The translations under genes and the position numbers were made by a program. The notes under the pieces were generated by a model, which had not been told where the DNA came from, did no database searches, and saw only the letters and a list, made by a program, of their open reading frames with translations. This document shows positions 1 through 23,700 of a DNA stretch of 64,000 bases, in pieces (the stretch's first letter is position 1; the number at the start of each line of letters is the position of its first letter). Origin of the DNA: a virus; the IMG/VR virus record IMGVR_UViG_3300033148_006239, positions 1-64,000 of that record; one strand, 5' to 3'.

Positions 1-22
1 ATTCTTTTTCATATTTTCCTCC
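1..22 (-). promoter_or_regulatory. RBS + ATG (GGAGGAAAAT-ATG-AAA-AAG-AAT) of a possible gene running off the left edge
   Basis: Reverse complement of 10-22 is GGAGGAAAATATG, identical to early-gene starts at 2541, 2872 and 3920. Confidence 0.6.
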
Positions 23-485
23 AAAACATTTTAAATCCTCACTTTATCCCATCACACCCACAATCAAATCCTTTTTTTAACCTCCATCCATAAACATAAT
101 AAAACATATTAAAAAAATCAACCTTATTTAAAAAAAAATACTCTTTTTTCAACAAAAACACTAAATCTTCACAACCTTACTATTTTATCACAACTTTAAC
201 ACATAATCTTCACTAAATCTTCACATTCTATCAAAAAAAATTTTTTTTAATTTTATAAAAAATTAAAAACTCAATATAATTCAAAATACTTCCAACATCT
301 CAAACACACCCTACCACCTCTCTACATCCATCCCTCAAATAACCCTACCACCACAAACCATCCTACACTTCAAATAACCATCCCTTTATTATCTCAACAT
401 TTTATCTTAAAATTACCTACATATCAACTTTTTATCACATCTACCTCTTAATTATATCCAAATCTAATACTTACCATAAAAAATC
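1..485. other. G-free, C-rich non-coding tract (extreme strand asymmetry)
   Basis: No G on the + strand until position 486; internal short direct repeats CACTAAATCTTCACA x2, CCCTACCAC x2, TCAAATAACC x2. Confidence 0.95.
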
Positions 486-914
486 GCCGTACGAAACACG
501 ACAGAAGCGATTTCGGTCATCAATCATCTCGAATAGTTTTCTTACCATGACTCTAACCACGCCGATTGAAGCGTGATTGATTACAGTTCAGATCTCTATC
601 TATCTCTAACCAATCTCTAACCGTCGCAATCTGATCAATTCATGCCATTTCGGATTTCTGTCAATCTGATAAAAGATAGAAACTAAGAATATATTAGTTT
701 CTTGATTGAAAAAAGTACTTTTATATGAAGTTAGAACAAAAAATCATTCAAAAAGACAGAAAATAGAAATTAAATTCGTATCGTGACTAAAGAATTAATT
801 ACTTTTCTGTCAAAAAGACTGATTTTAAAACGCTTTTGTATAGGGTAGATAAAAACTATCATTTCAACAACAATTCTTTAGAAAATAATATGAATTATAT
901 GTTTCAATGCGCCG

Positions 915-1023
915 AAATGAGTCAAATGACCGCTTTTCGAGCGAAGAAATGACCGTTTTCGGCACAGAAATGATAAAAACACGTCGAAAATGACTCAAAT
1001 CCGCTCTTTTTGATCGAAAATGA
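915..1023 (+). repeat. Six AAATGA direct repeats, iteron-like
   Basis: Copies start at 915, 924, 947, 968, 988, 1018; two extend as AAATGACCG(C)TTTTCG and two as TCGAAAATGA. Confidence 0.6.
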
Positions 1024-1586
1024 ACCCAGACAGCATGAAACCAAGACTTTTGATACGAAATTGATATAAATATCAAAAATCGATCAAATTAATGGAAAAC
1101 CGTGATTAGAAGTACTGATCAAGACAAGAATCAGATATATAAAGAGCGCCGTTTGCAGTCAGATTATATATCATTTTCTGTGCTTTTACTTATACTTATC
1201 TATTCCTCTATTCTTATATAGATTATGAAGAAGTCTATGGAGGTAACTAAAGAATATGATTAGAATGATTACCTTTCAAATGACTTCCTTTCTTTTCATA
1301 TTTTTTGCGATCTCGGAGAGTTCCATTGCAAGATTTGATATATATATTACGTTTCTTTATGACCGAAGACTAATGAATGGTTTACTTCGTTTCTATCTAG
1401 ACTGATTCTATTATAAATATTAAATCGATTCAATTTGATAAGATCATTAAATCGTTCACTATATCGATCTTATTAATTGAATCAAATAATATCTAAAGAA
1501 ATAACAATTGATCAAATGACTGATAGAACCTATATCTATCTTATGATTATTTTTTTTATTTTTTTAATTCTTTTGGGAAACTGGTA

Positions 1587-1615
1587 TTTTCTTTATTAAT
1601 CTATTTTATTATATT
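1587..1615 (+). promoter_or_regulatory. Early-class promoter TTTTCT-N17-TATATT
   Basis: Same geometry and TTTAT before the -10 as the sites at 4369, 5330, 6118, 9713 and 11317. Confidence 0.7.
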
Positions 1616-1619
1616 TATA

Positions 1620-1853
1620 TTATAATTTTTATTTATTAATTTAATAAATAAAAATTATAAAGAATTGGGGTTCCATATCCATCATCCCCGTTAGAGCCAA
1701 AGAAAGTGGTAGATTCGAAAGGATATCGATCTTTATATAAGAATGCTAAATCCTGTTCGGAACGTACAAGAGCCTCCATCAGGTCATATATATTTCTCCT
1801 CCAAAAATATTCTGGTCGGGGGAGGGAACTAATTCTATTAGTTCCTTCCTTTG
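1620..1853 (+). ncRNA. Candidate small RNA 1 with anti-RBS loop
   Basis: Between a promoter and a terminator; perfect 20-bp inverted repeat at the 5' end (1620-1660); CUCCUCC in a hairpin loop; no RBS-led ORF. Confidence 0.55.
1821..1853 (+). terminator. Intrinsic terminator
   Basis: GGAGGGAACTAA-ttcta-TTAGTTCCTTCC then TTT; its G.U pair forms only on the + strand. Confidence 0.65.
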
Positions 1854-1979
1854 ATTAGTTTATTTAATATATTTCTAGTGTTTCAATATGGATCTCCTGA
1901 TCACAGGATCTTTTGATTCAGAAGATCGTTTAGTTCAGGAGGTCTTTATGGGAACATTAGCTTCCCATGGAGGAAAATT

Positions 1980-2486
1980 ATGAATGAATTACATCCGATC
2001 TTTGCATCTATTCATGAGATTGAGGATATAACATTCAATGTCTACGGCATCAAAGTCGAAGACTGTGTTATATCAGGTATCTATAACAATCTATCATTTT
2101 CATGTAAACTTTCTATTACGGATTTCCATGTCGATCTATCTCATTTTATCAATATGGACAATCATGTGAAAGTTACGGTTTCTAATAAAATTCGTACTCT
2201 TTTAGGATACGAACCTTATTATGAAGATATTTCAATGCATGAACAAGAGATCAACGACTTTCCAAAACTTTGTCAGGATTTCGCTGACCACGTCAAATCG
2301 TTATTCAAATTCGCAGAATCGAACTCTTTATCTCCTGATCAATTCAAAAGATTTAGAATTAATTATATCAAGGATTTTAAAAACTTCGATACTTTCCACG
2401 ATCTATTTTTTCACGTTGGCTACATTCTATCTGAATCTACGGAACAAGATATCATGGATCACCTTGAAGAATATTATTCAAAGTAA
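1980..2486 (+). CDS. Early hypothetical protein (N-part resembles ORFs 2551 and 3930; C-part resembles ORF 2882)
   Basis: GGAGG RBS at 1969; visible internal paralogy. Confidence 0.85.
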   Translation: MNELHPIFASIHEIEDITFNVYGIKVEDCVISGIYNNLSFSCKLSITDFHVDLSHFINMDNHVKVTVSNKIRTLLGYEPYYEDISMHEQEINDFPKLCQDFADHVKSLFKFAESNSLSPDQFKRFRINYIKDFKNFDTFHDLFFHVGYILSESTEQDIMDHLEEYYSK

Positions 2487-2553
2487 TCAAATTCAAGCTA
2501 CTTCTAACGAGGTAGCTTCTTTGAGATTATTTAAATCTCAGGAGGAAAATATG
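2481..2553 (+). promoter_or_regulatory. Repeated two-hairpin leader, copy 1
   Basis: AAGTAATCAAATTCA, stem AAGCTACTTC/GAGGTAGCTT, stem TGAGAT/ATCTCA with TTATTT apex, GGAGGAAAATATG. Confidence 0.75.
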
Positions 2554-2790
2554 AAATTAAGATCAATTAAATTCGAAAACTTATTCTTGGTCTGGTACGA
2601 ATGGAAAGAAGGTGAACATGAATTTCACGGTCTTTTCAATGGAAAACACTTCAAAACAACAACATGGGATTACGAACTCTATGACAAATTTGAATCCGAA
2701 GAAATCGATTTCTATAGCCAAGAAAGAAATGATCTACATGAACAAATTAATGAAGCGTTTGATTATTATTTTTCTAATGTTGAAAAATAA
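2551..2790 (+). CDS. Early hypothetical acidic protein (79 aa)
   Basis: Start moved to the ATG after GGAGG at 2541; the track start at 2221 overlaps the previous gene. Confidence 0.85.
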   Translation: MKLRSIKFENLFLVWYEWKEGEHEFHGLFNGKHFKTTTWDYELYDKFESEEIDFYSQERNDLHEQINEAFDYYFSNVEK

Positions 2791-2792
2791 TC

Positions 2793-2884
2793 AAGTAATT
2801 CAATTGAGATTCATAAAATATTTAAAATTATTTAAAAACATTATGGATCTCGATGGGTTTATTTAACCCTCGGAGGAAAATATG
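2793..2884 (+). promoter_or_regulatory. Repeated two-hairpin leader, copy 2
   Basis: AAGTAATTCAATTGA, stem GAGATTCATAA/TTATGGATCTC, stem GGGTT-tattt-AACCC, GGAGGAAAATATG. Confidence 0.7.
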
Positions 2885-3508
2885 GAAACTATACATCAAA
2901 TTCTAGAACGTCAACACATTACAAAAGGCTTAGGAAATGGTTATGAAGGTGAAACAGTTAAAACTTTCTGTTTTAACGATATTTTAAACTCAATATCATT
3001 TTCACTTGCAAATGATTTAATTGGTTCAAAATATGCTGGAGAATTACTTCAACGAGCTACTGAAAATCTATCTAGCATATTTAAAGATCTTAATGTAGTC
3101 GGTGATCTAATTATTAATCGTGTTTCAAATCAAAATGAAGGATCAACTACTCTTCATACTGATGAAAAAAATATCGTAATTAATTATTCTGAATCACCAA
3201 ATTTGTTTGCGGTTCGTATGAAAATTCACGATATTGAAAAATATCACAATGAAGTTTCAATGTATCAAGATGATGTTGATAATTTCCCAAAAAATGTCAA
3301 AGACTTCGCAGATGAAGTTTTTGAAACTTGGGAACTTGCTCAGAAACATTTAACCGAACAGGAATTTAAGCAATTCCAAATTAATTTCATTAAAGATCTG
3401 GGTAGTTCAAGTACAATGTTTGATATGATGTTCGGTGTAAGGTTCATATTATCAGAAGAAGATGATAATATGATTGTTAATCAAATCAAAGAAAATTACA
3501 TCAAGTAA
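2882..3508 (+). CDS. Early hypothetical protein
   Basis: GGAGG RBS; C-terminal ~75 aa aligns by eye with ORF 1980 (FPK...DFAD.V...FK.F.IN.IKD...ILSE). Confidence 0.85.
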   Translation: METIHQILERQHITKGLGNGYEGETVKTFCFNDILNSISFSLANDLIGSKYAGELLQRATENLSSIFKDLNVVGDLIINRVSNQNEGSTTLHTDEKNIVINYSESPNLFAVRMKIHDIEKYHNEVSMYQDDVDNFPKNVKDFADEVFETWELAQKHLTEQEFKQFQINFIKDLGSSSTMFDMMFGVRFILSEEDDNMIVNQIKENYIK

Positions 3509-3579
3509 TCCAATTCAAATCGCTTGGTATTTATCAGGCGATTTCTTTGGGATTATTTTATCCCAGGAGGAAAAATATG
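3503..3579 (+). promoter_or_regulatory. Repeated two-hairpin leader, copy 3
   Basis: AAGTAATCCAATTCA, stem AAATCGCTTG/CAGGCGATTT, stem TGGGAT-tatttt-ATCCCA, GGAGGAAAAATATG. Confidence 0.75.
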
Positions 3580-3840
3580 ATTTTAGAATTAAAAGATACT
3601 AATGAATTTATGCGTCTAGATGATGACGATCCTATAACTGGGATTGAAGACCTATTCAATTTTTATTTAACAACACTTAATACAGATTATTCAAAATCTG
3701 TATTAAAAGATCTTAAATTCCCTTTAAATCTTTATTGGGGTTCAATTTATGATTCTTTAGAAGATGCTAAATTGAATGATCCAACTAATGAATCTGCATC
3801 GGGTTGGACAATTGATAAATTTATTGGTAACCGGCTATAG
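3577..3840 (+). CDS. Early hypothetical protein
   Basis: ATG after GGAGG; the track start TTG at 3547 lies inside the leader hairpin. Confidence 0.8.
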   Translation: MILELKDTNEFMRLDDDDPITGIEDLFNFYLTTLNTDYSKSVLKDLKFPLNLYWGSIYDSLEDAKLNDPTNESASGWTIDKFIGNRL

Positions 3841-3859
3841 CAACGATGGAAATCTAATT

Positions 3860-3932
3860 AAGTAACCAAATTCAGATCCATTCATTGTAAGTGGATCACT
3901 TTGTGGTTATTTGCCACAAGGAGGAAAATATG
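3860..3932 (+). promoter_or_regulatory. Repeated two-hairpin leader, copy 4
   Basis: AAGTAACCAAATTCA, stem GATCCATT/AGTGGATC, stem TTGTGGT-tattt-GCCACAA, GGAGGAAAATATG. Confidence 0.75.
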
Positions 3933-4220
3933 AAACAGGTTATTTTTCAAACACGAGATTTAGTTCTTGAGTTTCAAGAAATAGAACTCGACAACATTAT
4001 TGTTAGTGGTTTGTATCACGATAAACCATTTTCAGGTGTTATTTCACGAACAGCATTTGAAAAATTTGATTATAACAATACCTTTTCATCTAAAGAATTG
4101 GATGATCTTTTTGAAGATATTAAAAAATCAATTGATATTTATTATTTAGATGCTGAAGATGAAGATGAACCTTTATCTGATTATGTTTTAGAAATTTTTG
4201 GAGGAGAAATTGTTCAATGA
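3930..4220 (+). CDS. Early hypothetical acidic protein, paralogue of ORF 2551
   Basis: GGAGG RBS; GLYHDKPF vs GLFNGKHF; S.E..DL.E.I....D.Y pattern shared. Confidence 0.8.
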   Translation: MKQVIFQTRDLVLEFQEIELDNIIVSGLYHDKPFSGVISRTAFEKFDYNNTFSSKELDDLFEDIKKSIDIYYLDAEDEDEPLSDYVLEIFGGEIVQ

Positions 4221-4345
4221 TTATAAAAATAACAACTCTACCATCAAAAGATCTACCAGTATATCATCTCATTAAACGTTACCATAAAAAATCTTATCCT
4301 AAAGTGTCATTTAAAGAAATTTTACTTGAAGCTTTAAATAAGTAA
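4217..4345 (+). CDS. 42-aa basic protein, possibly ribbon-helix-helix
   Basis: Not in track; GGAGGAG RBS at 4200, ATGA overlap with upstream stop, ends SFKEILLEALNK. Confidence 0.55.
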   Translation: MIIKITTLPSKDLPVYHLIKRYHKKSYPKVSFKEILLEALNK

Positions 4346-4368
4346 TCTTTTAGTTGTAGAACTTAAAT

Positions 4369-4397
4369 TTCATCTTAGAAAATCTATTTATTATATT
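4369..4397 (+). promoter_or_regulatory. Early-class promoter TTCATC-N17-TATATT
   Basis: TTTAT-TATATT-ATAA upstream of the RBS of ORF 4435. Confidence 0.6.
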
Positions 4398-4434
4398 ATA
4401 AATAGGTAAAAATTTCATTTTACTTGGAGGAAAT

Positions 4435-4638
4435 ATGGTTTGTCGTACAGAAAACTATGCTTTCAAACTCAAAAATGGTCAAGAAGTAAAAGCTCATTAC
4501 AGAGATTTCTTAGAAACAGAAAATGGTAAAATCTATTGCGATGATCTTGCCGAAGAACTTTGCTATGATAATAAAACAATCAAGATTAAAGATGAAAATG
4601 GTGACTTTTCAGAAGCCATTGAATTGTTTGTTTTATAA
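4435..4638 (+). CDS. Hypothetical protein
   Basis: TTGGAGGAAATATG start. Confidence 0.8.
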   Translation: MVCRTENYAFKLKNGQEVKAHYRDFLETENGKIYCDDLAEELCYDNKTIKIKDENGDFSEAIELFVL

Positions 4639-4662
4639 TTAATTTATTTCATTGGAGGAAAT

Positions 4663-4881
4663 ATGAATTTTGAATTACAATCGGCTATTAATCAACTTGA
4701 TAGTGCCGCAGAGAGCTTAAAAAGATATTCAGAAGAATTAGAAAGAACTATCAAAAGCCTTAAAGATGGTAAAAATCCAAACCCTAATACTTTGGGATTA
4801 ACAACATTCATCGGTAATCTTACATCAAATATATCAAATAAAATTGCTCTTGCAATTTGCAATCTCTGTGAGATTAAGTGA
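4663..4881 (+). CDS. Hypothetical protein
   Basis: TTGGAGGAAATATG start. Confidence 0.8.
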   Translation: MNFELQSAINQLDSAAESLKRYSEELERTIKSLKDGKNPNPNTLGLTTFIGNLTSNISNKIALAICNLCEIK

Positions 4882-5027
4882 TGAATGATTACAATTATCA
4901 AAAACAACTTGATGAAGCTTGGGAACAACAAATCTTCTTCGAAGAAAAACGTATCAAATGTGGATGTAAAATTTGTTTAAATGAAGAATCTGAAGATCCA
5001 TGTCAAGATGTATTAGATTTATGGTAA
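4881..5027 (+). CDS. 48-aa hypothetical protein with CxCxxC
   Basis: TGATG coupling to the upstream stop; fills the gap. Confidence 0.5.
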   Translation: MNDYNYQKQLDEAWEQQIFFEEKRIKCGCKICLNEESEDPCQDVLDLW

Positions 5028-5041
5028 ATAAATGAGAAACT

Positions 5042-5248
5042 ATGAAAATCTTTAGAGAAGAACCTGGCAAAAATAGCTTTACAATTTCAGGATTAACTCT
5101 TGGTAAGCTTAATCTTATTAAAAGATTAATCATTTCAGCTTCTGAAAATTCTGATTCTGCTATTGTTGAAGATTTAAAATGTTTTTTAAATCAATATGAT
5201 CTAAAAAACACGAACACTTATGACGGCGACGTAAAATCAAATTCCTGA
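5042..5248 (+). CDS. Hypothetical protein
   Basis: ORF in operon orientation. Confidence 0.7.
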   Translation: MKIFREEPGKNSFTISGLTLGKLNLIKRLIISASENSDSAIVEDLKCFLNQYDLKNTNTYDGDVKSNS

Positions 5249-5329
5249 ATAAAAAATTATCCTTTATAATAATATAATTTTTTAATTCGTAAAACTGATA
5301 ACTTTTTTTGATCTCACGAAAATCGCCTA

Positions 5330-5358
5330 TTTACTTTAGTTTCTCAATTTATTATATT
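5330..5358 (+). promoter_or_regulatory. Early-class promoter TTTACT-N17-TATATT
   Basis: Upstream AAAATC(A)GCCTATTT shared with the promoter at 9713. Confidence 0.7.
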
Positions 5359-5397
5359 TTAAATATATAACACTGTAATACGGTGTTTGGAGGAAAT

Positions 5398-5526
5398 ATG
5401 AAAAATATAAACATTCAAGATCTCTTTGATGACTATGATGAAGAAGATTATGACGATTATCATTGTCAAATTACTGATCTTGACGATGATCAAATTTCAA
5501 TTGAATGTCAGCAATTAGATTATTAA
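5398..5526 (+). CDS. 42-aa highly acidic micro-protein
   Basis: Not in track; TTGGAGGAAATATG start; MKNINIQDLFDDYDEEDYDDYHCQITDLDDDQISIECQQLDY. Confidence 0.7.
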   Translation: MKNINIQDLFDDYDEEDYDDYHCQITDLDDDQISIECQQLDY

Positions 5527-5614
5527 CATTCTACCTTGAAGCTTATAAGATTATAAGATTATAAGCTTCAAGGCCGATTGTTAATCGGAACCATTAATTT
5601 TATTGGAGAAAATT

Positions 5615-6052
5615 ATGAAAAAGAAAAACACAGTAATCAAAGAAGAAGCAGTCAAAAAAACTGCTCCTGTAGTAATTGACAAGCCAAAAACTAAAACAAT
5701 TACAAAACCTGCTCAGAAAGAAGTAATCGTAAAAAAGAACAAAAAGAACAAAGCTTCTAAAGAGCAGATTCAACAAATTTGGACAACAATCCAAACTCAG
5801 ATTGATGAAAACATTAATAAAGGTAAAGAAATCAATTCTGAAATTAAAAATTCAATTGCTGAACAATTACACAAAACGATAAAGGTATATCCTAATCAAG
5901 GATATTATCTTTATTACATCAACAAATATGTCAACGGTGACATTCCAATCAATCAAAGCAAAAATGGTGTAGCCTTAGATAAAGATGCACAGAAAAAGCA
6001 AGTCACTACCCAAATTGAATCTCTCAAAACACAACTTGGAAAATTAAAATAA
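5615..6052 (+). CDS. Lys-rich hypothetical protein
   Basis: GGAG RBS before ATG 5615. Confidence 0.8.
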   Translation: MKKKNTVIKEEAVKKTAPVVIDKPKTKTITKPAQKEVIVKKNKKNKASKEQIQQIWTTIQTQIDENINKGKEINSEIKNSIAEQLHKTIKVYPNQGYYLYYINKYVNGDIPINQSKNGVALDKDAQKKQVTTQIESLKTQLGKLK

Positions 6053-6055
6053 TTT

Positions 6056-6098
6056 ATACCCTCTGTAGATTTATAAGGCTGATCTACAGAGGGTATTT
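6056..6098 (+). terminator. Terminator hairpin
   Basis: ATACCCTCTGTAGAT / ATCTACAGAGGGTAT 15-bp inverted repeat just after the stop. Confidence 0.75.
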
Positions 6099-6117
6099 AT
6101 ATATATTTTATTTTAAT

Positions 6118-6146
6118 TTTTCTACAAACATCAATTTTATTATATT
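6118..6146 (+). promoter_or_regulatory. Early-class promoter TTTTCT-N17-TATATT
   Basis: Exact consensus upstream of an AGGAGG RBS. Confidence 0.7.
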
Positions 6147-6173
6147 ATAATTAATAAAATTAAGGAGGAATCT

Positions 6174-6401
6174 ATGATATTCGGTGTAGATTTTCAACAA
6201 GCATGTAAAGCAACTACTACAGGTCATAAAGTTAAAAGAGCAAATGGTGCGAATGTATATACATTTCTATCACCTGCTCATGCAATGGTCTTACAAACCA
6301 TAAGGGACAAATTTGGAAACGCAACAGAAAGTAAACCTGTCGCAACATTAATCTCAACAAACGATCAACAGGAAAATGACTGGATGATGTATCAAAAATA
6401 A
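6174..6401 (+). CDS. Tad2/DUF2829-like anti-defence sponge protein
   Basis: DFQQACKATTTGHKVKR...STNDQQENDW fits the F..A....G.KV.R...S..D..A.DW family pattern. Confidence 0.55.
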   Translation: MIFGVDFQQACKATTTGHKVKRANGANVYTFLSPAHAMVLQTIRDKFGNATESKPVATLISTNDQQENDWMMYQK

Positions 6402-6413
6402 CCGGGAGAAAAT

Positions 6414-6773
6414 ATGACTTATAAAGAAAAATTTATCGAAAAACTTCAGATTTATAATCTTAGTAAATCTGAAGACTTAGAACATGACGTAATTGCTCAT
6501 CTAATAAATTGGGCAGAAAAAGGTAATGACTTCGCTTATAATTTATTAAGGTTAAATTTTGATACTGCCGAATCATTAATTCATAAATTTTATGAATGGG
6601 AACTGGATAAAAACGAAGTATATCCCATGGACACAGAACTTATTCTTGAGATGTATTTTATAAAAGCAAAAGGAATTGCAAAAAAATCTGGAATCTGCAT
6701 CGAGAAAATAAAAACAACACATATGCATATCATTTTCTATTTAATAGAAAATGAATTTCTAAAATTATTTTGA
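6414..6773 (+). CDS. Hypothetical protein
   Basis: GGGAG RBS. Confidence 0.8.
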   Translation: MTYKEKFIEKLQIYNLSKSEDLEHDVIAHLINWAEKGNDFAYNLLRLNFDTAESLIHKFYEWELDKNEVYPMDTELILEMYFIKAKGIAKKSGICIEKIKTTHMHIIFYLIENEFLKLF

Positions 6774-6780
6774 GGTAATT

Positions 6781-7659
6781 ATGAAAAAATTATACAAAGT
6801 TTTTGATCCAGGTTTGATCAGCCCGTATCAGAATTTTAAATACAAAAAAGATAAAGAATATCATTGTGATAATTTTGACTATGATCAGTCGGATCATTGT
6901 AGTAATGGTTTCTATGCCGTCCCTATCGAAGGATTAATTTACACTTACCGCAAAGGTAAACATGTATACGAAGTCAATGTATGGGGTGATGAAATCATTA
7001 TAGATCAATTTAAGCAACGATACGAATATATTAATATTGGTAACAGAATACCACTGAAACAATTAAAACAACTAGTCAAAGAACAATCTAATAAAATGGA
7101 TTACAATTTATATCATACAATGTTCCCAATTGATCCACAGATAGTAAATCGTAAATTAAACAATAATGATAGTAAAATATTAGAAAAATGGGATTGTGTG
7201 AGGGATTCTGTGAGGACTTCTGTGTGGAATTCTGTGAGGGATTCTGTGAGGGATTCTGTGGGGGATTGTGTGTGGAATTCTGTGAGGGATTCTGTGAGGA
7301 CTTCTGTGAGGGCTTCTGTGTGGAATTCTGTGGGGGATTGTGTGTGGAATTCTGTGAGGGATTCTGTGTGGAATTCTGTGGGGGATTCTGTATGGGATTC
7401 TGTGAGGGATTCTGTGGGGGATTGTGTGTGGAATTCTGTGAGGGATTCTGTGGGGGATTGTGTGGGGGCTTATATATCAAACCTATTTCCATGCATGAAA
7501 AAATGGAAATATATAAATCATAAGCCAAATATTAATCCATATCAGTCATGTATTGATTTATGGCATCGTGGGTTTGTGCCTTCATTTGACGGTAAAATAT
7601 GGCGATTACATCAAGGCAGAGATGCTAAAATAATCTACGAATGGAAAGCAAAACAATGA
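6781..7659 (+). CDS. Phage protein with 23 [WRG][DNTA][SC]V tetrapeptide repeats
   Basis: GAGG RBS; N-terminal CSNGFYA domain; repeat is in frame. Confidence 0.85.
   Translation: MKKLYKVFDPGLISPYQNFKYKKDKEYHCDNFDYDQSDHCSNGFYAVPIEGLIYTYRKGKHVYEVNVWGDEIIIDQFKQRYEYINIGNRIPLKQLKQLVKEQSNKMDYNLYHTMFPIDPQIVNRKLNNNDSKILEKWDCVRDSVRTSVWNSVRDSVRDSVGDCVWNSVRDSVRTSVRASVWNSVGDCVWNSVRDSVWNSVGDSVWDSVRDSVGDCVWNSVRDSVGDCVGAYISNLFPCMKKWKYINHKPNINPYQSCIDLWHRGFVPSFDGKIWRLHQGRDAKIIYEWKAKQ
7189..7464 (+). repeat. 23 x 12-nt coding tandem repeat (consensus NGG-RAT-TCT-GTG)
   Basis: Directly visible. Confidence 0.95.
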
Positions 7660-7847
7660 TTATTTATTTAAAAAAGAGTGAACATAATATACCTGAATGG
7701 TTTAAAAACCCTAGATATACTTTGAAACATGATACATATAAAGACGAATATATTCTAGGTGATGCTGATCGTCTAATTTATTTCAGAGTACATAAATTAA
7801 ACAAAGCAAATTTCAAAAAATTTAAAAAACTTTTGGAGGAAGAATGA
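7656..7847 (+). CDS. Hypothetical protein
   Basis: ATGA overlaps at both ends. Confidence 0.7.
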   Translation: MIIYLKKSEHNIPEWFKNPRYTLKHDTYKDEYILGDADRLIYFRVHKLNKANFKKFKKLLEEE

Positions 7848-8248
7848 ATCACGACATTTATATTTCTGGACCTTTTAAAGATCCAAATAATTTAAAACTT
7901 GTAACAGAAATTAATAATCTTTGTGAATCAAATGGATTTAAAACTTTTCATACATTAAAAGATGGAATTGTTTTAGATGAAGATTCAGATAATGATAAAA
8001 TACGTGAAGCTATTAGATTGGGTATAGATGCTACATTACACGCAAAGATTTTTATAGCAATAGGACTAGATCCAGGTGTCATGTTTGAATTAGGATTAGC
8101 ATGGCGCTATGGAAAAAGAATTATATATTTCTCAAAAAATAAACCAAACAAAGTTATTTCAGCAATATCTAATTATGTAATAGAAAAAGATTTTGGTGAA
8201 CTAAATGTAGCTTTACAGATTCTTGGAGTAGATTATGACAGAAATTAA
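7844..8248 (+). CDS. Nucleoside 2-deoxyribosyltransferase / nucleotide N-hydrolase family
   Basis: IYISGPF and DPGVMFELGLA motifs. Confidence 0.75.
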   Translation: MNHDIYISGPFKDPNNLKLVTEINNLCESNGFKTFHTLKDGIVLDEDSDNDKIREAIRLGIDATLHAKIFIAIGLDPGVMFELGLAWRYGKRIIYFSKNKPNKVISAISNYVIEKDFGELNVALQILGVDYDRN

Positions 8249-9521
8249 AACAATTCTTGAAGAAATTGCATCTGAATCTAGTACAAATAAAAAAGTAGAA
8301 ATTTTACAATCTTATAAAGATAATAAAAAATTACAATCATATCTAAAAATGACTCTCGATCCTATGATTAATTTTAATGTAACTAAAAAATCGTTCAAAG
8401 ATAGATTTGAAATCTGGATTAATGATAGTGAATCTAATAATATTAATTGGTTTGAACTCAAAAAATATGTTTTAGATAAATTATGTTCAAGAGAAGTTAC
8501 TGGTCATAAAGCGTTACAATTATTTATTGATCATTATGTTGGAAATGAAATTGTTCTTAATATTATCTTCGATATGTTCCAAAAAAAAGTATGGAAAGCA
8601 AATATCTCTATTCAATTAATTAATCGTGTTTGGCCCGATGTTATTGATAAATTTCAAGTTCAATTAGCACAAAAATATTCTAAAGCTGAATTACCTTTTG
8701 ATATTACTTATGCATCCAGAAAACTTGATGGTACAAGAGCATTAATATTTATTTATGAAAATTCAATAAAAATCTTTTCAAGAAATGGAAAAGAAATACA
8801 CACCTTAGAATCATTCAAAAAAGATTTACTTAAACATATACAAGAATCTCATTATTCACGTATTATTCCATGTGTCATTGATGGTGAATTGTGTGTTGTT
8901 GATGAAAATAATAATGAAAGTTTTCAATCTATCATAAAACAATTACGTAGAAAAGATTATGATATAAAAAATGCAACATTTTATGTATTTGATTGGCTAT
9001 TAGTAGACGAATTCTATGAAAATATAAAATCTCCACAATTCAGTTATAGACTAAATGCTTTAAACTATTTTTGTAATACAATTGATTATGACAAAGTCAA
9101 AGCATTAAAACAGATCGTAGTCAAAAGAGAAAGCCATTTACAAAGATTAATTGAATCTGCATCAGAAAGAAATTGGGAAGGAATAATGCTTAAAAATGGT
9201 GAAAGTATTTATAAAGGAAAAAGAACTAAAAATCTGCTAAAAGTAAAGAAAATGAGTGATAACGAATATACAGTCACAAGATTAGAAGAAGGGTCTGCAA
9301 AATATATTGGAAGATTAGGTGCGGCAATAATTATACATAAAGATAATGAAGTTCATGTAGGTAGTGGCTGGTCTGATTCAGAAAGAGATTACTATTGGAA
9401 AAATAAAAATGAATTAATCGGAAAGAAAATTACAGTTCAATACTTTGAAGAAACTAAAAATCAACTAGGAAAATATTCCCTTAGATTTCCAGTCTTTAAA
9501 GGAGTAAGAGATTATGAATAA
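8235..9521 (+). CDS. ATP-dependent DNA ligase
   Basis: KLDGTR, IDGEL, YVFD, WEGIMLK, LLKVK, SLRFPVF motifs. Confidence 0.95.
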   Translation: MTEIKTILEEIASESSTNKKVEILQSYKDNKKLQSYLKMTLDPMINFNVTKKSFKDRFEIWINDSESNNINWFELKKYVLDKLCSREVTGHKALQLFIDHYVGNEIVLNIIFDMFQKKVWKANISIQLINRVWPDVIDKFQVQLAQKYSKAELPFDITYASRKLDGTRALIFIYENSIKIFSRNGKEIHTLESFKKDLLKHIQESHYSRIIPCVIDGELCVVDENNNESFQSIIKQLRRKDYDIKNATFYVFDWLLVDEFYENIKSPQFSYRLNALNYFCNTIDYDKVKALKQIVVKRESHLQRLIESASERNWEGIMLKNGESIYKGKRTKNLLKVKKMSDNEYTVTRLEEGSAKYIGRLGAAIIIHKDNEVHVGSGWSDSERDYYWKNKNELIGKKITVQYFEETKNQLGKYSLRFPVFKGVRDYE

Positions 9522-9681
9522 TAAAAAAGAAATTGAAGAAATTATTGAAAAATATTTAATTGAGAAATTAATAATTTCTTTTGATCGTTATACAAATAAT
9601 TGTGGTGATGAAATAATAGAAATTGAAATTTCTTTAAAAGATACAAAATTTTCCATAATTAAATCAATAACAGTAAATTGA
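9514..9681 (+). CDS. 55-aa hypothetical protein
   Basis: Not in track; AAGGAG RBS inside the ligase 3' end. Confidence 0.55.
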   Translation: MNNKKEIEEIIEKYLIEKLIISFDRYTNNCGDEIIEIEISLKDTKFSIIKSITVN

Positions 9682-9712
9682 AAACTTTTTTTAATCAAAT
9701 AAAATCAGCCTA

Positions 9713-9741
9713 TTTTCTTTGTAAAACTTATTTATTATAAT
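9713..9741 (+). promoter_or_regulatory. Early-class promoter TTTTCT-N17-TATAAT
   Basis: Consensus match. Confidence 0.75.
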
Positions 9742-9790
9742 ATAAATAACAAAATAAAAGGTTATTACTTAATAACCAATGGAGAAAAAT

Positions 9791-10264
9791 ATGATAACTA
9801 ATTTTATTTCAAACAGAAATCTTCAAGACTTACTTCTAGGTGAACCTCAAATTGAAATTTTCAAAGACCAAAATAATGAATTTCATTTTATTCATTTTGA
9901 AGATATTCATATTGAAATATGGGAAGATGATTCCCTAAAACAACAATCTCATTCTAATAATGTTTCATCAATAAACGAACAAGATTTACTTAATAATGAA
10001 ATTGTTATTGCAAACAATATAGAAAATGTTAAATTAGTTCTTGAAGAAAGACTTCAAAACAAATACTTTCTTGTAATCTCAGAAAAGAAAACATACAAAG
10101 TCAAGATTAAAGCAACATTTGAACTTGAAACGACAATTGAAAATACAACAGAAGAACTAGCAAAAAGAGAAGCAGAAAAATATGAAATTGAATGTAGCTG
10201 CGACAGTGAACTTGAAGTAATAGATGAAGACTTTAATATTGAAGTAGAGGAAGAGGGAGAATAA
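9791..10264 (+). CDS. Acidic hypothetical protein
   Basis: GGAG RBS at 9781 before ATG 9791. Confidence 0.8.
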   Translation: MITNFISNRNLQDLLLGEPQIEIFKDQNNEFHFIHFEDIHIEIWEDDSLKQQSHSNNVSSINEQDLLNNEIVIANNIENVKLVLEERLQNKYFLVISEKKTYKVKIKATFELETTIENTTEELAKREAEKYEIECSCDSELEVIDEDFNIEVEEEGE

Positions 10265-10917
10265 TGAAAATAATAAATAACTGGTCAATAGTAGATGGAA
10301 TCGGTATTTATGTTTCACCTCAAGCTATAAATTATCATATCTATCTCATAGGTAGTATCGAAGGTGTTAATACACAAACATCATATATTAAGAAATTAAT
10401 ACTTTACGACAATAAAATTGAAACACTAAATAGCGTTTATGAATTAGGTCAAAAATCAGAAAATTATTCAAGATTTCTATCTGAAGAAGATCTATCAATT
10501 ACAGATGCATATCCAAATAGTGATCTAATTGATTTATTCATTAAAAATGAATTAAAATTAGGAACACTAAAAGGTTGTCTAAAAACGGGGTGGTATGATT
10601 GGTTTTGTGAACCTGAAAAAATACCAAGCAAAACAAAAAAATTATTAAGACTGCTTTATGAAATTAGAAATACAAAAAAGTTTGATATTTCTAATACAGC
10701 AGTAATGTTCAAAAATAATTGTCATGTAGATTATGGACTGTACGATGATTTTAGAATATTGGATTTATATAAACAATCTTCAAATCCAATATTCACAATA
10801 ATACCATATTATCCACACATTAAGCAATCAGCAGTTTATGGACCTGAAAATAAGTTTGAAGAACCATTGGTGAGTGGAACATGGAACGACGTTTTAAGAT
10901 TTTTTAATAAGGAATAA
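10264..10917 (+). CDS. Hypothetical protein, apparently two domains
   Basis: TAATG coupling; C-domain GWYDWFC...FKNNC...LYDDFRI. Confidence 0.8.
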   Translation: MKIINNWSIVDGIGIYVSPQAINYHIYLIGSIEGVNTQTSYIKKLILYDNKIETLNSVYELGQKSENYSRFLSEEDLSITDAYPNSDLIDLFIKNELKLGTLKGCLKTGWYDWFCEPEKIPSKTKKLLRLLYEIRNTKKFDISNTAVMFKNNCHVDYGLYDDFRILDLYKQSSNPIFTIIPYYPHIKQSAVYGPENKFEEPLVSGTWNDVLRFFNKE

Positions 10918-10962
10918 TATTTATATTATTCTCAAATTTTGTTCAAAAACAAGGAGTAACTT

Positions 10963-11310
10963 ATGGACAACATTGTAGAAACTTATCAAGATATATTGGA
11001 TACAATGAGTTCAAATATTGACGAATTCTTTGAATCACAACCAATCTCTAAAAAAGCGATTGAAGAAATTCAAACTGAATTTGATGATCTCAATTGTGAC
11101 AACGTTCTTGTCAACGAAAAGACAAGATGCCTTGTCTTTTTAAACGAAAAGACACTCAAAAATTGGAGTGAAAAAACTCCAATAAAACCAAAGAACATTA
11201 TTAACATGGACAGTGCATTTGTTGCTTACCAACGTATACCATCAAATGCAAATAAAGAAGTTAAAGGATTTTTTCAGTTAATCACAGGTGAGAGAAAGGC
11301 AAATGTATAA
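10963..11310 (+). CDS. Hypothetical protein
   Basis: AAGGAG RBS. Confidence 0.8.
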   Translation: MDNIVETYQDILDTMSSNIDEFFESQPISKKAIEEIQTEFDDLNCDNVLVNEKTRCLVFLNEKTLKNWSEKTPIKPKNIINMDSAFVAYQRIPSNANKEVKGFFQLITGERKANV

Positions 11311-11316
11311 TATGAT

Positions 11317-11345
11317 TTTACTTTATTAATCAGTTTTATTAGGTT
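11317..11345 (+). promoter_or_regulatory. Early-class promoter TTTACT-N17-TAGGTT, near twin of the promoter at 1587
   Basis: TTTACTTTATTAATCAGTTTTATTA vs TTTTCTTTATTAATCTATTTTATTA. Confidence 0.55.
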
Positions 11346-11351
11346 ATTAAC

Positions 11352-11484
11352 TGATTAAGTCCTTTTTATATGAAGTTTAATTATATATTCCTCCCAGTAC
11401 AATAATTAAACTTCATTTTTTTCGCAATACTGTAACATATTTTTCTCCAAAGGGGCATGGTACTCACTTTCCATGCCCCTTTTC
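11352..11484 (+). ncRNA. Candidate small RNA 2 with anti-RBS segments
   Basis: 15-bp perfect stem (11370-11384/11402-11416) enclosing UUCCUCCC; CAUAUUUUUCUCCAA at 11436-11450; ends at terminator. Confidence 0.5.
11449..11484. terminator. Terminator between convergent blocks
   Basis: AAAGGGGCATGG...CCATGCCCCTTTT. Confidence 0.8.
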
Positions 11485-11620
11485 TAGACTTAAAATGTGG
11501 TTGAAAAATTTTAATAGGCAGGAGATTATTTATATTTATTTAATATAAACCTATATTAAATATAAAAAGATTCAATAGAGATAATTCTGGATTCAGAGAT
11601 AATAATTAAAATTAATTAAA

Positions 11621-11972: not shown

Positions 11973-12452
11973 TTATTCTGATAAGTAATCGTTTATTTCA
12001 TTAAGAATCTCATCTTCTTCATCAAACCAAGCTTTAATCCTACGAAGTAATTGTTTATATTTCTCTATCTGTCCTTCAAGATTTTCTATAATTTGATTAA
12101 GACTTTCGTTGTCTCTTTGAACTTGTGCAACAAGAATATCGAGAGCTTCTTTGTCTTTCTTTAACTGATCCAAAGTTTCAATTATATCTCTAGCCTGCTC
12201 TTCGTATTTAACTGCTTTTTCTTCTAAAGTATCAACTTGTCCATTTAATGTATTATTTTCATTTTCAAGATTAGCGTTGTCTCTTTGCAAACCCTTAATC
12301 ATATTAAAAAGTACATCAAACAATGACTTACCTTCTGCCACTACTTGTTCGGCAGATTGCTCTTCTTCTTGAGATTCATCTTGAGCAGCAAATACTGGTG
12401 CTGCAATAAACATTATACATAAAAGAATTAAAATTGAAAAATATATTTTCAT
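11973..12452 (-). CDS. Exported coiled-coil protein
   Basis: Signal peptide ending VFA, heptad repeats, AGGAGG RBS. Confidence 0.8.
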   Translation of the reverse strand: MKIYFSILILLCIMFIAAPVFAAQDESQEEEQSAEQVVAEGKSLFDVLFNMIKGLQRDNANLENENNTLNGQVDTLEEKAVKYEEQARDIIETLDQLKKDKEALDILVAQVQRDNESLNQIIENLEGQIEKYKQLLRRIKAWFDEEDEILNEINDYLSE

Positions 12453-20714: not shown

Positions 20715-23700
20715 TTAACCACAACTACCATCAGAATTACCACAATTTGGACATGTTTTACATCTTCCTGTTTGTTCCATCAATGTTCCACATTTACTAC
20801 ATGATTCACCAGTTTCTTTTTGAACTTGTGTAACATTTTTATCTAAATATTTCATTAATAAATATTTACCTAAATAGTCTGAAGGTGAATTAACAAATCT
20901 TAATTCATTGATACTGCTTGATGTAATTCCAGCAGGTTCATATTTCATATCAATTAATGAATTACATAATTCTTCTAAAGGAACTTCGTATTGTAATGCC
21001 TTTGATATTATCTTTGCAAGTGAATCCATTAAACCAGCAGTCGTAGATCCTTCTTTATTCATAATTATAAATAATTCTGCTAAACTACCATCATCAAATT
21101 CACCTGGAATTATATACATTGTTTGTTTATCAATCTTTACTTTATGTACTGAGGCATTTCTTGTATCATCAAGTGCTTTCTTTTTATTGCTTTGACCAAT
21201 AAAACCTTTATTATTACCAGTATTCAGTGGCTGAGTCATTTTACTTCCATCTCTGTAAATTGTAATACCTTTTAATTTACTTTTCCACGCAAACATAAAT
21301 GCATCTTTAACATCATCAACTGTAGAATCTGAACTCATATTTATTGTCTTTGAAATCGCACCACTGATAAAGGGTTGTACTGCAGCAACCATCATTATAT
21401 GTGCTTCATAGCTAAGCATATTCCCAGCTTTATCGGGTAATGAACATTCAAATACTTTTTGATGTTCTTCTTTCAAAAATTTACAATCACTTAAATCATT
21501 ATTCTCTGACAGATGTTCTAGAATATTTCTCGTATAATTTTCATCATATCCTAGTGCTTTCAATGCATTTTGTACCGAATCATTTATTAAAATTTCTGTA
21601 GTACCACTTATTAATTTCTTATACTTTATTAAAGCTAAATCAGACTCAATACCTGTCGTATCACAATCCATTAAAAATGATATTGTACCAGTAGGAGCTA
21701 TTACTGTAACTTGAGCGTTTCTAAATGTTAAACCTTCCGATGTAATAAATGACCAATTATCAAGTGCTTCGTCGTACAATTCATTATAATTAAAATCTAT
21801 CTTTAATTGAGGAAAATTTATTCTTTTGTGTTCTACTAAATGCTTCTTAAGAACCTTTCTGAAAGAAGATTTATTTTTTTCAAAATATTTAAATGGTTCT
21901 AAAAATTCAGATACTTCAGAGCTTACAGCATAAGCAGTAGACGTCATTAAACTAGTGATAAGAGATGCGATTAATCTTCCATCATCTGAATCATAAGGAA
22001 TACCTAATGTCATTAACAGTGATCCAAGATTACTAAAGCCTAATCCTAATGGTCTAAAATCTTGTGAATTTTCTTTTACTGATTCATTTGGATATTCAGA
22101 AATCTCACATATAATATCTTGCGAAATTACAAATAATTTTATAATGTGCTTGAATTTATCAATATCAAATTTATTACCATCTAGAAGTTTTATTAAATTA
22201 ACCGATGCTAAATTACATGCACTATCATTAAGAAAAACATATTCACCACAATTATGTATAATAACAAATCCCTTCTCAGATCCAGCAGCAAAATTTCCCA
22301 ACGAAGGAACAGATAAATCATAAACATCTTCACGTTTACGTTTTCTTACATAAATAACTTTATGATTATATTGTAAACATTTTTCTTTAAAATCATCCCA
22401 ATCTAAACCTTGAACTCTTCTTTTATAAGTATGACCAATAGGAGCTTTACCTCTATAGCGTTCTTTAACTATTTTATTCCATTCATTTAATTCTGATCTA
22501 TTAACTCTCTTATTTTTAGAATAATTTTCTAAAGCTTCAACCATTATATTATATAATAGTTTAGCGTCACAATCCATAAACATACCATTATTAACACCTT
22601 TCCTAGCACAATTTTCTTTCCAAAGATCATATTTTTCTTTATTCGTATTCTTCAAAATACGAATAGGATTATTATCTCCCATAACATGATCTCTAGCATG
22701 CTTTGACTTTGAAATAACTTCTAAATTATTTGGATCATCATTGAGCTTATCATGATCTTTATGATGTACATGAAATTGTCTATCACTTCTATCAAAATCT
22801 AATATATCGTTAGCAACAACTCTATTACACTTTTGTAATGGATATTCACCATCCAAAAGATTCATTCTTCTATACCCAAATTTATCAACTCTACAATAAA
22901 ATGGTGTCAAAGAATCACCTTGTTTTAAATCTTTTGCTTTTTTATATTTACCGTTCTTTAATAAAAATCTATGATCTGGTGTACAATCTATATAGCCACC
23001 ACTACCGAACCCGACTCTTACTGTTTCTGTATTAACTTTTGTTTTAACTATCTTATTGACTTTTCCAACTGAAATCCTTTTCCTATCATAAGAATAACCA
23101 TAAACATATAAATTATCATAATCATTAATAAGTTCATCAACTCTTTTCGGACCACGCGTCGTAAATATTAATGTTGATCCAGTAACACATGGATTACTAG
23201 ATTCTATCTTACCACTTCTCTTGCACGTGTGCCAATCATTAACTCTCGTATCAAAGAACAAAGCAGGATCTCCACAAAAATGTGAATATTCACAAATTTT
23301 ATTAAATACTTCTTTTGCATTCAAAATATCAATTTGATCACCAGTTGTTCTTGCCACTGTGGCGTACGTATTATTTTGCACTACTCTTTCCATAAAATCG
23401 TCAGTTACGGAAACAGAAAAATTACTGTTCTGAAAATTAACATGTTTATATGCACTATTTTTACTAGAAAAATCTGTCGAATATTCTCCTGTAGAAGCTA
23501 ATAATCTTGCTTTAATCTCTTCTTTATATTTAGCTTCAATAAATTCAATAATATCAGGATGGTCGTAGTTCAATATTTCCATTTTTGCGGCGCGACGTGT
23601 ATTTGAAACACAAATTCCTTTACCATAAATATCACTTTTATTATCTAACGACCATATAATATAATTATGACCAGAATTTATAGATTTATCATCTAAAGAA

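Follow-up and report, generated by a model that had tools for sequence, protein, structure and literature searches.

Control of translation by antisense pairing at ribosome-binding sites is a known class of mechanism. In Staphylococcus aureus, the small RNAs RNAIII and RsaE use C-rich loops to pair with Shine-Dalgarno (SD) sequences. The phage RNA c4 shares a transcript with its target, lies upstream of it there, and is set free by processing. In phages P1 and P7, c4 blocks translation by pairing with complements around the ribosome-binding site of a phage message (PMC12197685). In T4, the phage-encoded RegB and RegA shut off early messages at their SD or start regions (PMC1702504; PMC3014915), RegB by cutting within the GGAG of early mRNAs (PMC1702504).

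The locus considered here, a putative 5' leader at nucleotides 1587-1876 of a phage genome, can be set beside each of these systems. Like c4, it is complementary to sequence that overlaps ribosome-binding sites (17 of 17 nucleotides at the start site of the open reading frame at 4217; predicted energies of -14 to -24 kcal/mol at 11 early sites), and in the proposed arrangement it would be an upstream RNA on its target's own transcript, from which it is released. Unlike c4, it has no Rfam match to RF01695. Moreover, c4 presents its pairing bases in loops of a defined fold, whereas the motif here lies in an unstructured linker; and c4 acts on one antirepressor operon of a temperate phage, whereas the leader would address a class of early start sites in a phage that lacks an integrase.

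With RegB and RegA the locus would have its effect in common, as the proposed pairing at the early SD would likewise shut off early proteins, but those regulators are proteins, whereas the recognition element here would be RNA; homology is not implied. Its pyrimidine-rich, CCUCC-type motif, able to pair with the SD, recalls RNAIII and RsaE. However, the leader matches neither of them in Rfam, the motif lies outside any stable hairpin loop, and the complement is not confined to the SD but runs on through spacer and AUG to mirror the entire start site. Finally, cis-acting anti-SD leaders and attenuators, among them small RNAs that premature termination frees from 5' UTRs, offer several likenesses: the long, structured leader; an anti-SD upstream of the SD; an internal terminator-like hairpin; and a coupled upstream open reading frame (uORF). 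Here, though, no ligand-binding or antiterminator fold is predicted, and the best complement is a start site 2.4 kb downstream rather than that of the adjacent gene. The leader sequence belongs to no catalogued family.

The phage and its early promoters

The source is an IMG/VR virus record of 105,324 bp, whose 114-bp terminal repeat is an assembly overlap. The window, the whole stretch of DNA that was analyzed, comprises bases 1-64000 of this record; positions outside it are marked as genome positions. GC content is 27% across the genome. Genes on the plus strand span 1980-11310, and all remaining genes lie on the minus strand, the first of them starting at position 12. The candidate locus thereby forms the right edge of a gene-free control region of about 1.9 kb, with divergent gene blocks on either side. 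The gene content includes a DnaE-type polymerase, ribonucleotide reductase, ligase, SbcC, and a DnaB-like helicase. The genome contains neither an integrase nor any serine or tyrosine recombinase, and a tRNA/tmRNA search found none.

Neither near nor distant DNA relatives were found in the phage collection. IMG/VR searches with the 168-aa early protein, the ligase, and DnaE returned no relatives; a search there with two DNA patterns returned three hits, all chance matches on contigs of 42-45% GC; and protein and pattern searches of JGI metagenomes returned no relatives. The DnaE protein is less than 30% identical to that of any cultured phage. The ligase has a 99% variant on a 2.6-kb contig, the next-best ligase being 40% identical, and three other contigs encode early proteins identical to those of this phage. 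All early proteins are ORFans. By sequence comparison, then, the phage is an orphan in every collection searched, collections from which entries for this genome, or for a very close one, may be absent.

The control region has further features. Positions 900-1030 hold six to seven copies of GAAATGA / GAAAATGA, spaced 11-30 nucleotides apart in a locally GC-richer patch, and a nearly pure A/T stretch follows at 1540-1660. In layout, these iterons and the putative unwinding element look like a replication origin or a packaging site. A hydrophobic 49-aa open reading frame on the plus strand (1256-1405; GGAGG at 1239, ATG 12 nucleotides later) sits inside this nominally gene-free region, uncalled by the source annotation. 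The plus strand lacks G altogether at positions 1-485 and over the genome's final ~200 bases, a stretch that takes in the first codons of the gene starting at 12.

Two genes elsewhere in the window carry unusual internal sequence. In the 292-aa open reading frame at 6781-7659, repeats of ~24 nucleotides (7190-7470) encode W/R-N/D-S-V-R/G-D-S/C-V many times over; this run is the most GC-rich 200 nucleotides of the genome (51%). The 1499-aa ribonucleotide reductase large subunit (20715-25214, minus strand) has HNH-endonuclease matches at about residues 300-500 and 797-849, which suggests intein or homing-endonuclease insertions.

The leader and its principal target comprise the following features.

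1587-1615, plus strand: early promoter P1587, with a -35-like TTTTCT (1587-1592), a 17-nucleotide spacer, and the -10 sequence TATATT (1610-1615)
1620-1660, plus strand: perfect palindrome of A and T only, with 20-nucleotide arms (1620-1639 and 1641-1660) that are 100% complementary and 1 nucleotide between them
1661-1784, plus strand: weakly structured leader body, 40% GC against 27% for the genome
1785-1813, plus strand: anti-TIR segment (CAUAUAUAUUUCUCCUCCAAAAAUAUUCU) that mirrors SD, spacer, and AUG
1812-1876, plus strand: hairpin of 22 bp (1812-1833 with 1837-1858, loop UCU) and U-rich tail
1875-1986, plus strand: remaining leader, with a long hairpin in which GGAUCUCCUGA (1890-1900) pairs with the uORF SD, then the first-gene start site
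4190-4219, plus strand: target start region of the 42-aa open reading frame at 4217-4345, with GGAGGAG, 10 nucleotides, and ATG

The -10 of P1587 sits within the class motif TTTATTATATT, and transcription is predicted to start near 1622. The 11-mer -10 block, TTTATTATAWT, occurs in eight copies in the window, in four cases with TTTWCT 17 nucleotides 5' of it. Among these copies are the following.

1605, 4387, 5348, 6136, and 9731, plus strand (n=5): copies ahead of early gene clusters
12492 and 14146, minus strand (n=2): further copies

One of the minus-strand copies lies 30 nucleotides upstream of the gene starting at 12452. P1587 matches the class consensus, TTTWCT-N12-TTTATTATAWT, at 17 of 17 positions, a circular score in that the consensus was derived from the same sites; it is positions and orientation that constitute the evidence. 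The other perfect members are at 5330, 6118, and 9713, and all four are on the plus strand in the early region. The recurrent extended -10 block is likely, from these sequences, to mark a host-polymerase early promoter class. The locus had been described from its sequence, in a preliminary description, as a stand-alone small RNA gene beginning with a promoter at 1587-1615; that promoter stands, now as an apparent member of a recurrent class, and P1587 would give the locus the promoter of its own that a bacterial-type small RNA gene has.

The position of P1587 relative to coding sequence sets it apart. At 5330, 6118, and 9713, the -10 ends 28-50 nucleotides before the SD-led ATGs at 5398, 6174, and 9791, and 28-50 nucleotides is the range across the other four class units. 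From the -10 of P1587, the next SD-led ATG is 333 nucleotides away (the uORF at 1948) or 365 (the gene at 1980), making for a leader of 333-365 nucleotides.

Leader or stand-alone RNA

The first element behind the promoter had been described as a 20-bp 5' hairpin, and 1620-1639 does pair perfectly with 1641-1660. As modeled, this palindrome would fold into a hairpin at the 5' end of the RNA, or else would serve at the DNA level as an operator or unwinding element. The middle of the leader (1661-1811) folds no better than its shuffles (z of +1.16 on the plus strand and +0.54 on the minus strand). A second CCUCC (1773-1777) lies in the loop of a small hairpin, the stem of which pairs 1772-1775 with 1781-1784. 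The GC-rich island was considered as a sign of structured RNA and rejected: it reaches only the 98th percentile of 200-nucleotide windows, and the fold of the body is non-significant. An Rfam 15 search of window positions 1-6000 (E <= 10) matched no bacterial or phage small RNA family; the only overlap, MIR474 at 32 bits against a gathering threshold of 48, is caused by the long hairpin.

The 1812-1858 stem contains six G.U pairs, with every G on the 5' arm of the plus strand, and its predicted energy is -33.0 kcal/mol on the plus strand versus -14.6 on the minus strand. The terminator-like hairpin of the preliminary description, with its strand fixed by G.U pairing, is thereby upheld. A consensus scan also finds the hairpin terminator-like, and the tail that follows it is UUUAUUUAAUAUAUUUCU, U-rich to 1876. 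By our own count, the U-richness of this tail (UUUAUUUAAU) equals that of the true unit-end terminators with which it was compared.

6060-6100: unit-end terminator before P6118
11451-11484: unit-end terminator at a convergent junction
Genome 101545: unit-end terminator outside the window

Partial termination at 1812-1858 is plausible because the tail is as U-rich as these. A stem of 22 bp would also suit RNase III in its length. In these models, 1812-1876 would be an attenuator or terminator, or possibly an RNase III-type processing hairpin. An alternative fold of the antiterminator or riboswitch kind was rejected, the 1812-1858 hairpin having a probability of ~1 in every construct.

Downstream of the hairpin lies an 11-codon uORF (SD 1938-1942, ATG 1948), the stop codon of which (1981-1983) overlaps the ATG at 1980 as ATGA. 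The start site of this first early gene consists of an SD at 1969-1974 and the AUG at 1980. In the predicted fold, positions 1890-1900 hide the uORF SD by pairing with it in a perfect helix of 11 bp. Such an arrangement suggests, on the modeled structure, coupled and structure-gated translation of the first early gene. Upstream of the uORF, no SD-led open reading frame occurs on the plus strand across 1622-1947, in agreement with the ~230 nucleotides first described as lacking one; the source gene caller left the leader region noncoding, yet called 42-aa open reading frames nearby.

Scans for the class motif and for sigma-70 promoters found no plus-strand promoter between 1858 and 1980. This argues that genes 1980-4345 depend on at least partial read-through of the 1812-1858 hairpin. 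They make up the first early operon, five to six strongly SD-led genes with SDs that no others in the genome surpass. Upstream of the operon, P1587 is alone in its promoter class, and therefore the RNA would at least also be the operon's 5' leader; the claim of a stand-alone small RNA gene is not supported here.

The stand-alone alternative, in line with the first proposal, is a discrete trans-acting RNA of ~245 nucleotides, ending at an efficient terminator at 1812-1858 and silencing early phage or host messages by anti-SD pairing, with the operon served by an unrecognized promoter of its own. The promoter followed by a terminator-like hairpin with a U-rich tail, the absence of coding capacity, and the 17-nucleotide perfect complement all fit such an RNA, as does the existence of a clearly stand-alone unit of similar design at genome 101464-101575. 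We consider it improbable nonetheless. With no recognized promoter at 1858-1980, the hairpin should not terminate fully. Furthermore, the hairpins at 5534-5573 and before 2551, 2882, 3577, and 3930 are intergenic in the early block with no promoter after them, and therefore the hairpin here need not terminate.

A complement to early start sites

Positions 1792-1808, ATTTCTCCTCCAAAAAT, are the exact reverse complement of 4194-4210; allowing a single bulge lengthens the match to 21 of 22 positions (1792-1813 versus 4190-4210). The reported 17-nucleotide complement to the ribosome-binding site at 4217 is thus confirmed, and these two sites are the only matches in the window even at 2 mismatches. 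The target region lies within the last codons (EIFGGEIVQ*) of gene 3930-4220, and the source annotation counts the 42-aa open reading frame at 4217-4345 among its genes. On the minus strand, 1785-1808 reads TTTTTGGAGGAGAAATATATATG, a near-consensus early start site (early genes read GGAGGAAAATATG); the plus-strand RNA therefore carries an anti-SD together with an anti-AUG.

The match is longer than expected by several measures. The longest complement between the RNA (1622-1868) and 22 early start regions is 17 nucleotides, and 0 of 1000 dinucleotide shuffles exceeded 14; when the target was widened to the complete early transcript, 17 was reached in 3 of 1000. With the CTCCTCC core fixed and the flanks randomized, 0 of 5000 sequences reached 16 nucleotides. 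Shared SD consensus also fails to explain the match, because the longest word shared within 7260 pairs of ribosome-site contexts in the genome is 14 nucleotides. Equally long complements, the abundance of which in shuffled controls had been named as grounds for doubt, are thus rare (p < 0.001 to 0.003 for the leader RNA). By a crude genome-wide count, about 6 distant inverted 17-mers occur in this AT-rich DNA, and the significance therefore rests on where both arms lie. On the plus strand of 486-11600, CCTCC occurs 3 times versus 0.94 expected, and all of these sites (1773, 1798, and 11390) fall inside two noncoding candidate loci. The match would then stem from selection for pairing or from a shared origin on which selection has acted.

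A third possibility is that the leader is real and its complementarity has no regulatory role, being the leftover of a small inverted duplication of a start region or a chance match aided by the SD consensus. The leader would then have another function: to stabilize the mRNA by means of its 5' hairpin; to attenuate; or to carry transcription across a neighboring origin. That ~6 distant 17-nucleotide inverted matches exist genome-wide, that the original search was post hoc, and that gene 1980 has an occluded SD whether or not the anti-TIR segment is there are all in keeping with this, and the A/T-only stretch (1540-1660) and the GAAATGA iterons (~900-1030) upstream look origin-like. It is unlikely, in our judgment, given the shuffle and conditional tests (p < 0.001 to 0.003), a match longer than that of every RBS-RBS pair in the genome, and the expectation that an abundant early RNA whose complement to a live start site is perfect (-24 kcal/mol) would pair, selected or not.

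The two arms can also be read as DNA: an inverted repeat (1792-1813 and 4190-4210; 21 of 22) that flanks genes 1980-4190, and between which recombination might flip this first early block of 2.4 kb, with the arms as crossover sites. This is extremely improbable. The genome is without a serine or tyrosine recombinase, one arm of the repeat lies within coding sequence, and inversion would sever the genes from their only promoter.

The preliminary description had itself named an alternative, that the motif is the remnant of a ribosome-binding site on the minus strand.

1636-1802, minus strand: GGAGGAG (1802-1796), 8 nucleotides, ATG (1787-1785), ACC, and TGA (1781-1779)

The ATG of a 47-aa open reading frame (1779-1777) overlaps this stop codon, and the frame ends at 1636. 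The site could be live, serving the 2-codon mini-ORF and the 47-aa protein, or a relic; its likeness to 4217 would then reflect common origin. Its GGAGGAG-8 nucleotide-ATG spacing is ideal, and the TGATG overlap permits reinitiation. The 47-aa frame is the only open one across 1639-1779, its codon score is positive (0.11 per codon versus a null of -0.08 +/- 0.28), and missing homologues weigh little where the early proteins are all ORFans. Several observations nevertheless weaken this alternative. The SD-led ATG opens merely 2 codons, and the 47-aa frame, which begins 16 nucleotides after the SD, is reachable only via reinitiation. No homologue of the 47-aa frame was found in 1.84 billion representatives (the sole hit, with an E value of 1e-4, was rejected as a repeat-protein artefact); it is without a PHROG match, and the source annotation, which called two 42-aa open reading frames nearby, left it uncalled. 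Its codon score of 0.11 falls below that of every real small early gene (0.16-0.50). Upstream on the minus strand, neither a class promoter nor a middle-promoter motif was found; the flanking hairpin is far weaker on that strand; and a neutral relic would not hold 17 of 17 identity while the flanks share nothing. A minus-strand ribosome-binding site, live or decayed, is accordingly quite doubtful. By our estimate, ~1.5 occurrences of an SD-like sequence with an ATG are expected by chance on the minus strand of the 11-kb early region; on that count, the mirrored AUG was given no weight as proof of design.

How the segment is displayed differs from what had been proposed. Rather than lying in a hairpin loop, CUCCUCC falls in a mostly unpaired linker (unpaired probability 0.4-0.9). 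The segment's predicted duplex with the start site of the 4217 open reading frame has an energy of -24.2 kcal/mol, and those with ten other GGAGGA-type early start sites range from -14 to -17 kcal/mol, running from SD through AUG. In read-through RNA, 1785-1803 is predicted to pair in cis with 1968-1986. In folds of either 1622-2040 or 1622-2100, 1797-1802 pairs with the SD at 1969-1974 with a probability of ~1.0, and 1789-1791 with the AUG at 1980-1982 with a probability of ~0.9. This helix between the anti-TIR segment and the start site closes a domain with the 1812-1858 hairpin and the second hairpin (the 1890-1900 helix). The unpaired probability of the gene 1980 SD is 0.01 in the native sequence versus 0.19 with the anti-TIR segment scrambled. 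Whether the segment is scrambled or deleted, a weak 5-bp hairpin close by keeps most of the SD pairing in place, and the modeled cis effect on gene 1980 may be small.

The reading that we prefer, and hold tentatively, is that 1587-1876 may well be an attenuated 5' leader of the first early operon with a functional anti-start-site segment, acting in cis or, if released, in trans. Host RNA polymerase would start at ~1622 from P1587, making an RNA that contains, in order: an AU hairpin of 17-20 bp; ~150 weakly structured nucleotides; the 22-bp hairpin; and the U-rich tail. Some transcripts would end or be cut at the 22-bp hairpin, yielding an RNA of ~245 nucleotides, and the remaining transcripts would read through into genes 1980-4345. 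The linker (1785-1803/1813), mirroring the consensus early start GGAGGA-AAAUAU-AUG, would pair with early messages at their SD and AUG. Its partners in cis would be the start site of the first gene (1968-1986) and, perhaps, the perfectly matching 4190-4210 on the same transcript; in trans, if released, it would reach a dozen GGAGGA-type early start sites. Translation of early proteins would be damped or delayed, an RNA counterpart of protein-based early shut-off. Promoter firing, partial termination, pairing, and repression are what we infer from the features described. Of the anti-SD riboregulator first proposed, this would retain the plus-strand promoter and hairpin, the noncoding character, and the better-than-chance complement, and would discard the loop display and the separate gene.

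Related units and a possible early shut-off

Two further loci share elements of this design.

11317-11490, plus strand: second candidate locus, P1587-like through the spacer (TTTACTTTATTAATC..TTTTATTA), with a poor -10, TAGGTT
Genome 101464-101575, plus strand, outside the window: stand-alone unit with TTTACA-17-TATAAT (11/12), a noncoding RNA of ~75 nucleotides, and a terminator

The locus at 11317-11490 contains two hairpins with U tails, and UUCCUCCC lies in the loop of the first. Directly before the second hairpin, a bidirectional terminator (11451-11484), is CAUAUUUUUCUCCAA (11436-11450), a 14-nucleotide complement to the start site at 9780-9793. The locus may be the 3' trailer of the last early gene. 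A long terminal repeat with boundaries at 1587 and 11317 was considered as an explanation of the twin motif.

The other unit is one of three tandem promoter-plus-hairpin units on the plus strand (genome 101321-101575), in a 500-nucleotide gap between minus-strand genes. The last of these, at genome 101464-101575, is by its sequence the most small RNA-like of the genome. Its RNA has a 5' hairpin, CAUACUAAAUCUCCAAG, and GCCCC...GGGGCC with UUUUAUUU after it. None of the start sites was found to have a long specific complement in this unit. No known RNA family was found for the candidate RNAs.

In the leader, at 11436-11484, and at genome 101464-101575, a mirrored start site stands directly before a terminator on the plus strand. 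The minus-strand ATG opens only 2, 10, and 10 codons in the leader, 11436-11450, and genome 101464-101575, respectively. This three-locus layout, a pattern found post hoc, favors plus-strand function.

The three loci can be combined into an RNA-based early shut-off, in which several short plus-strand RNAs from early-type promoters would accumulate and titrate early start sites, a task that RegA and RegB perform in T4 as proteins. The RNAs would be the leader (1622-1870), the trailer (11346-11490), and the stand-alone RNA (genome 101499-101575), jointly covering the SD subclasses GGAGGA and GGAGAAAA. In a variant, by analogy with rRNA operons, 1792-1813 and 4190-4210 would join as leader and trailer in a helix around the first operon, to be cut by a double-strand-specific activity. 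Both the combined scheme, in all its parts, and this variant strike us as rather unlikely.

To our knowledge, early-protein shut-off is known in few virulent phages, and the textbook cases, RegA and RegB of T4, are proteins. The leader at 1587-1876 is a well-formed candidate, so far as sequence can tell, in an orphan metagenomic phage. If the attenuated-leader reading is true, the phage would have in this RNA, a mirror of its own early ribosome sites taken from a leader, a brake that costs little and times itself, and there would be a reason for the near-identical start sequence among early genes. It would also hold a warning for annotators: a promoter and then a terminator before an early operon may be an attenuated leader, not a small RNA gene.
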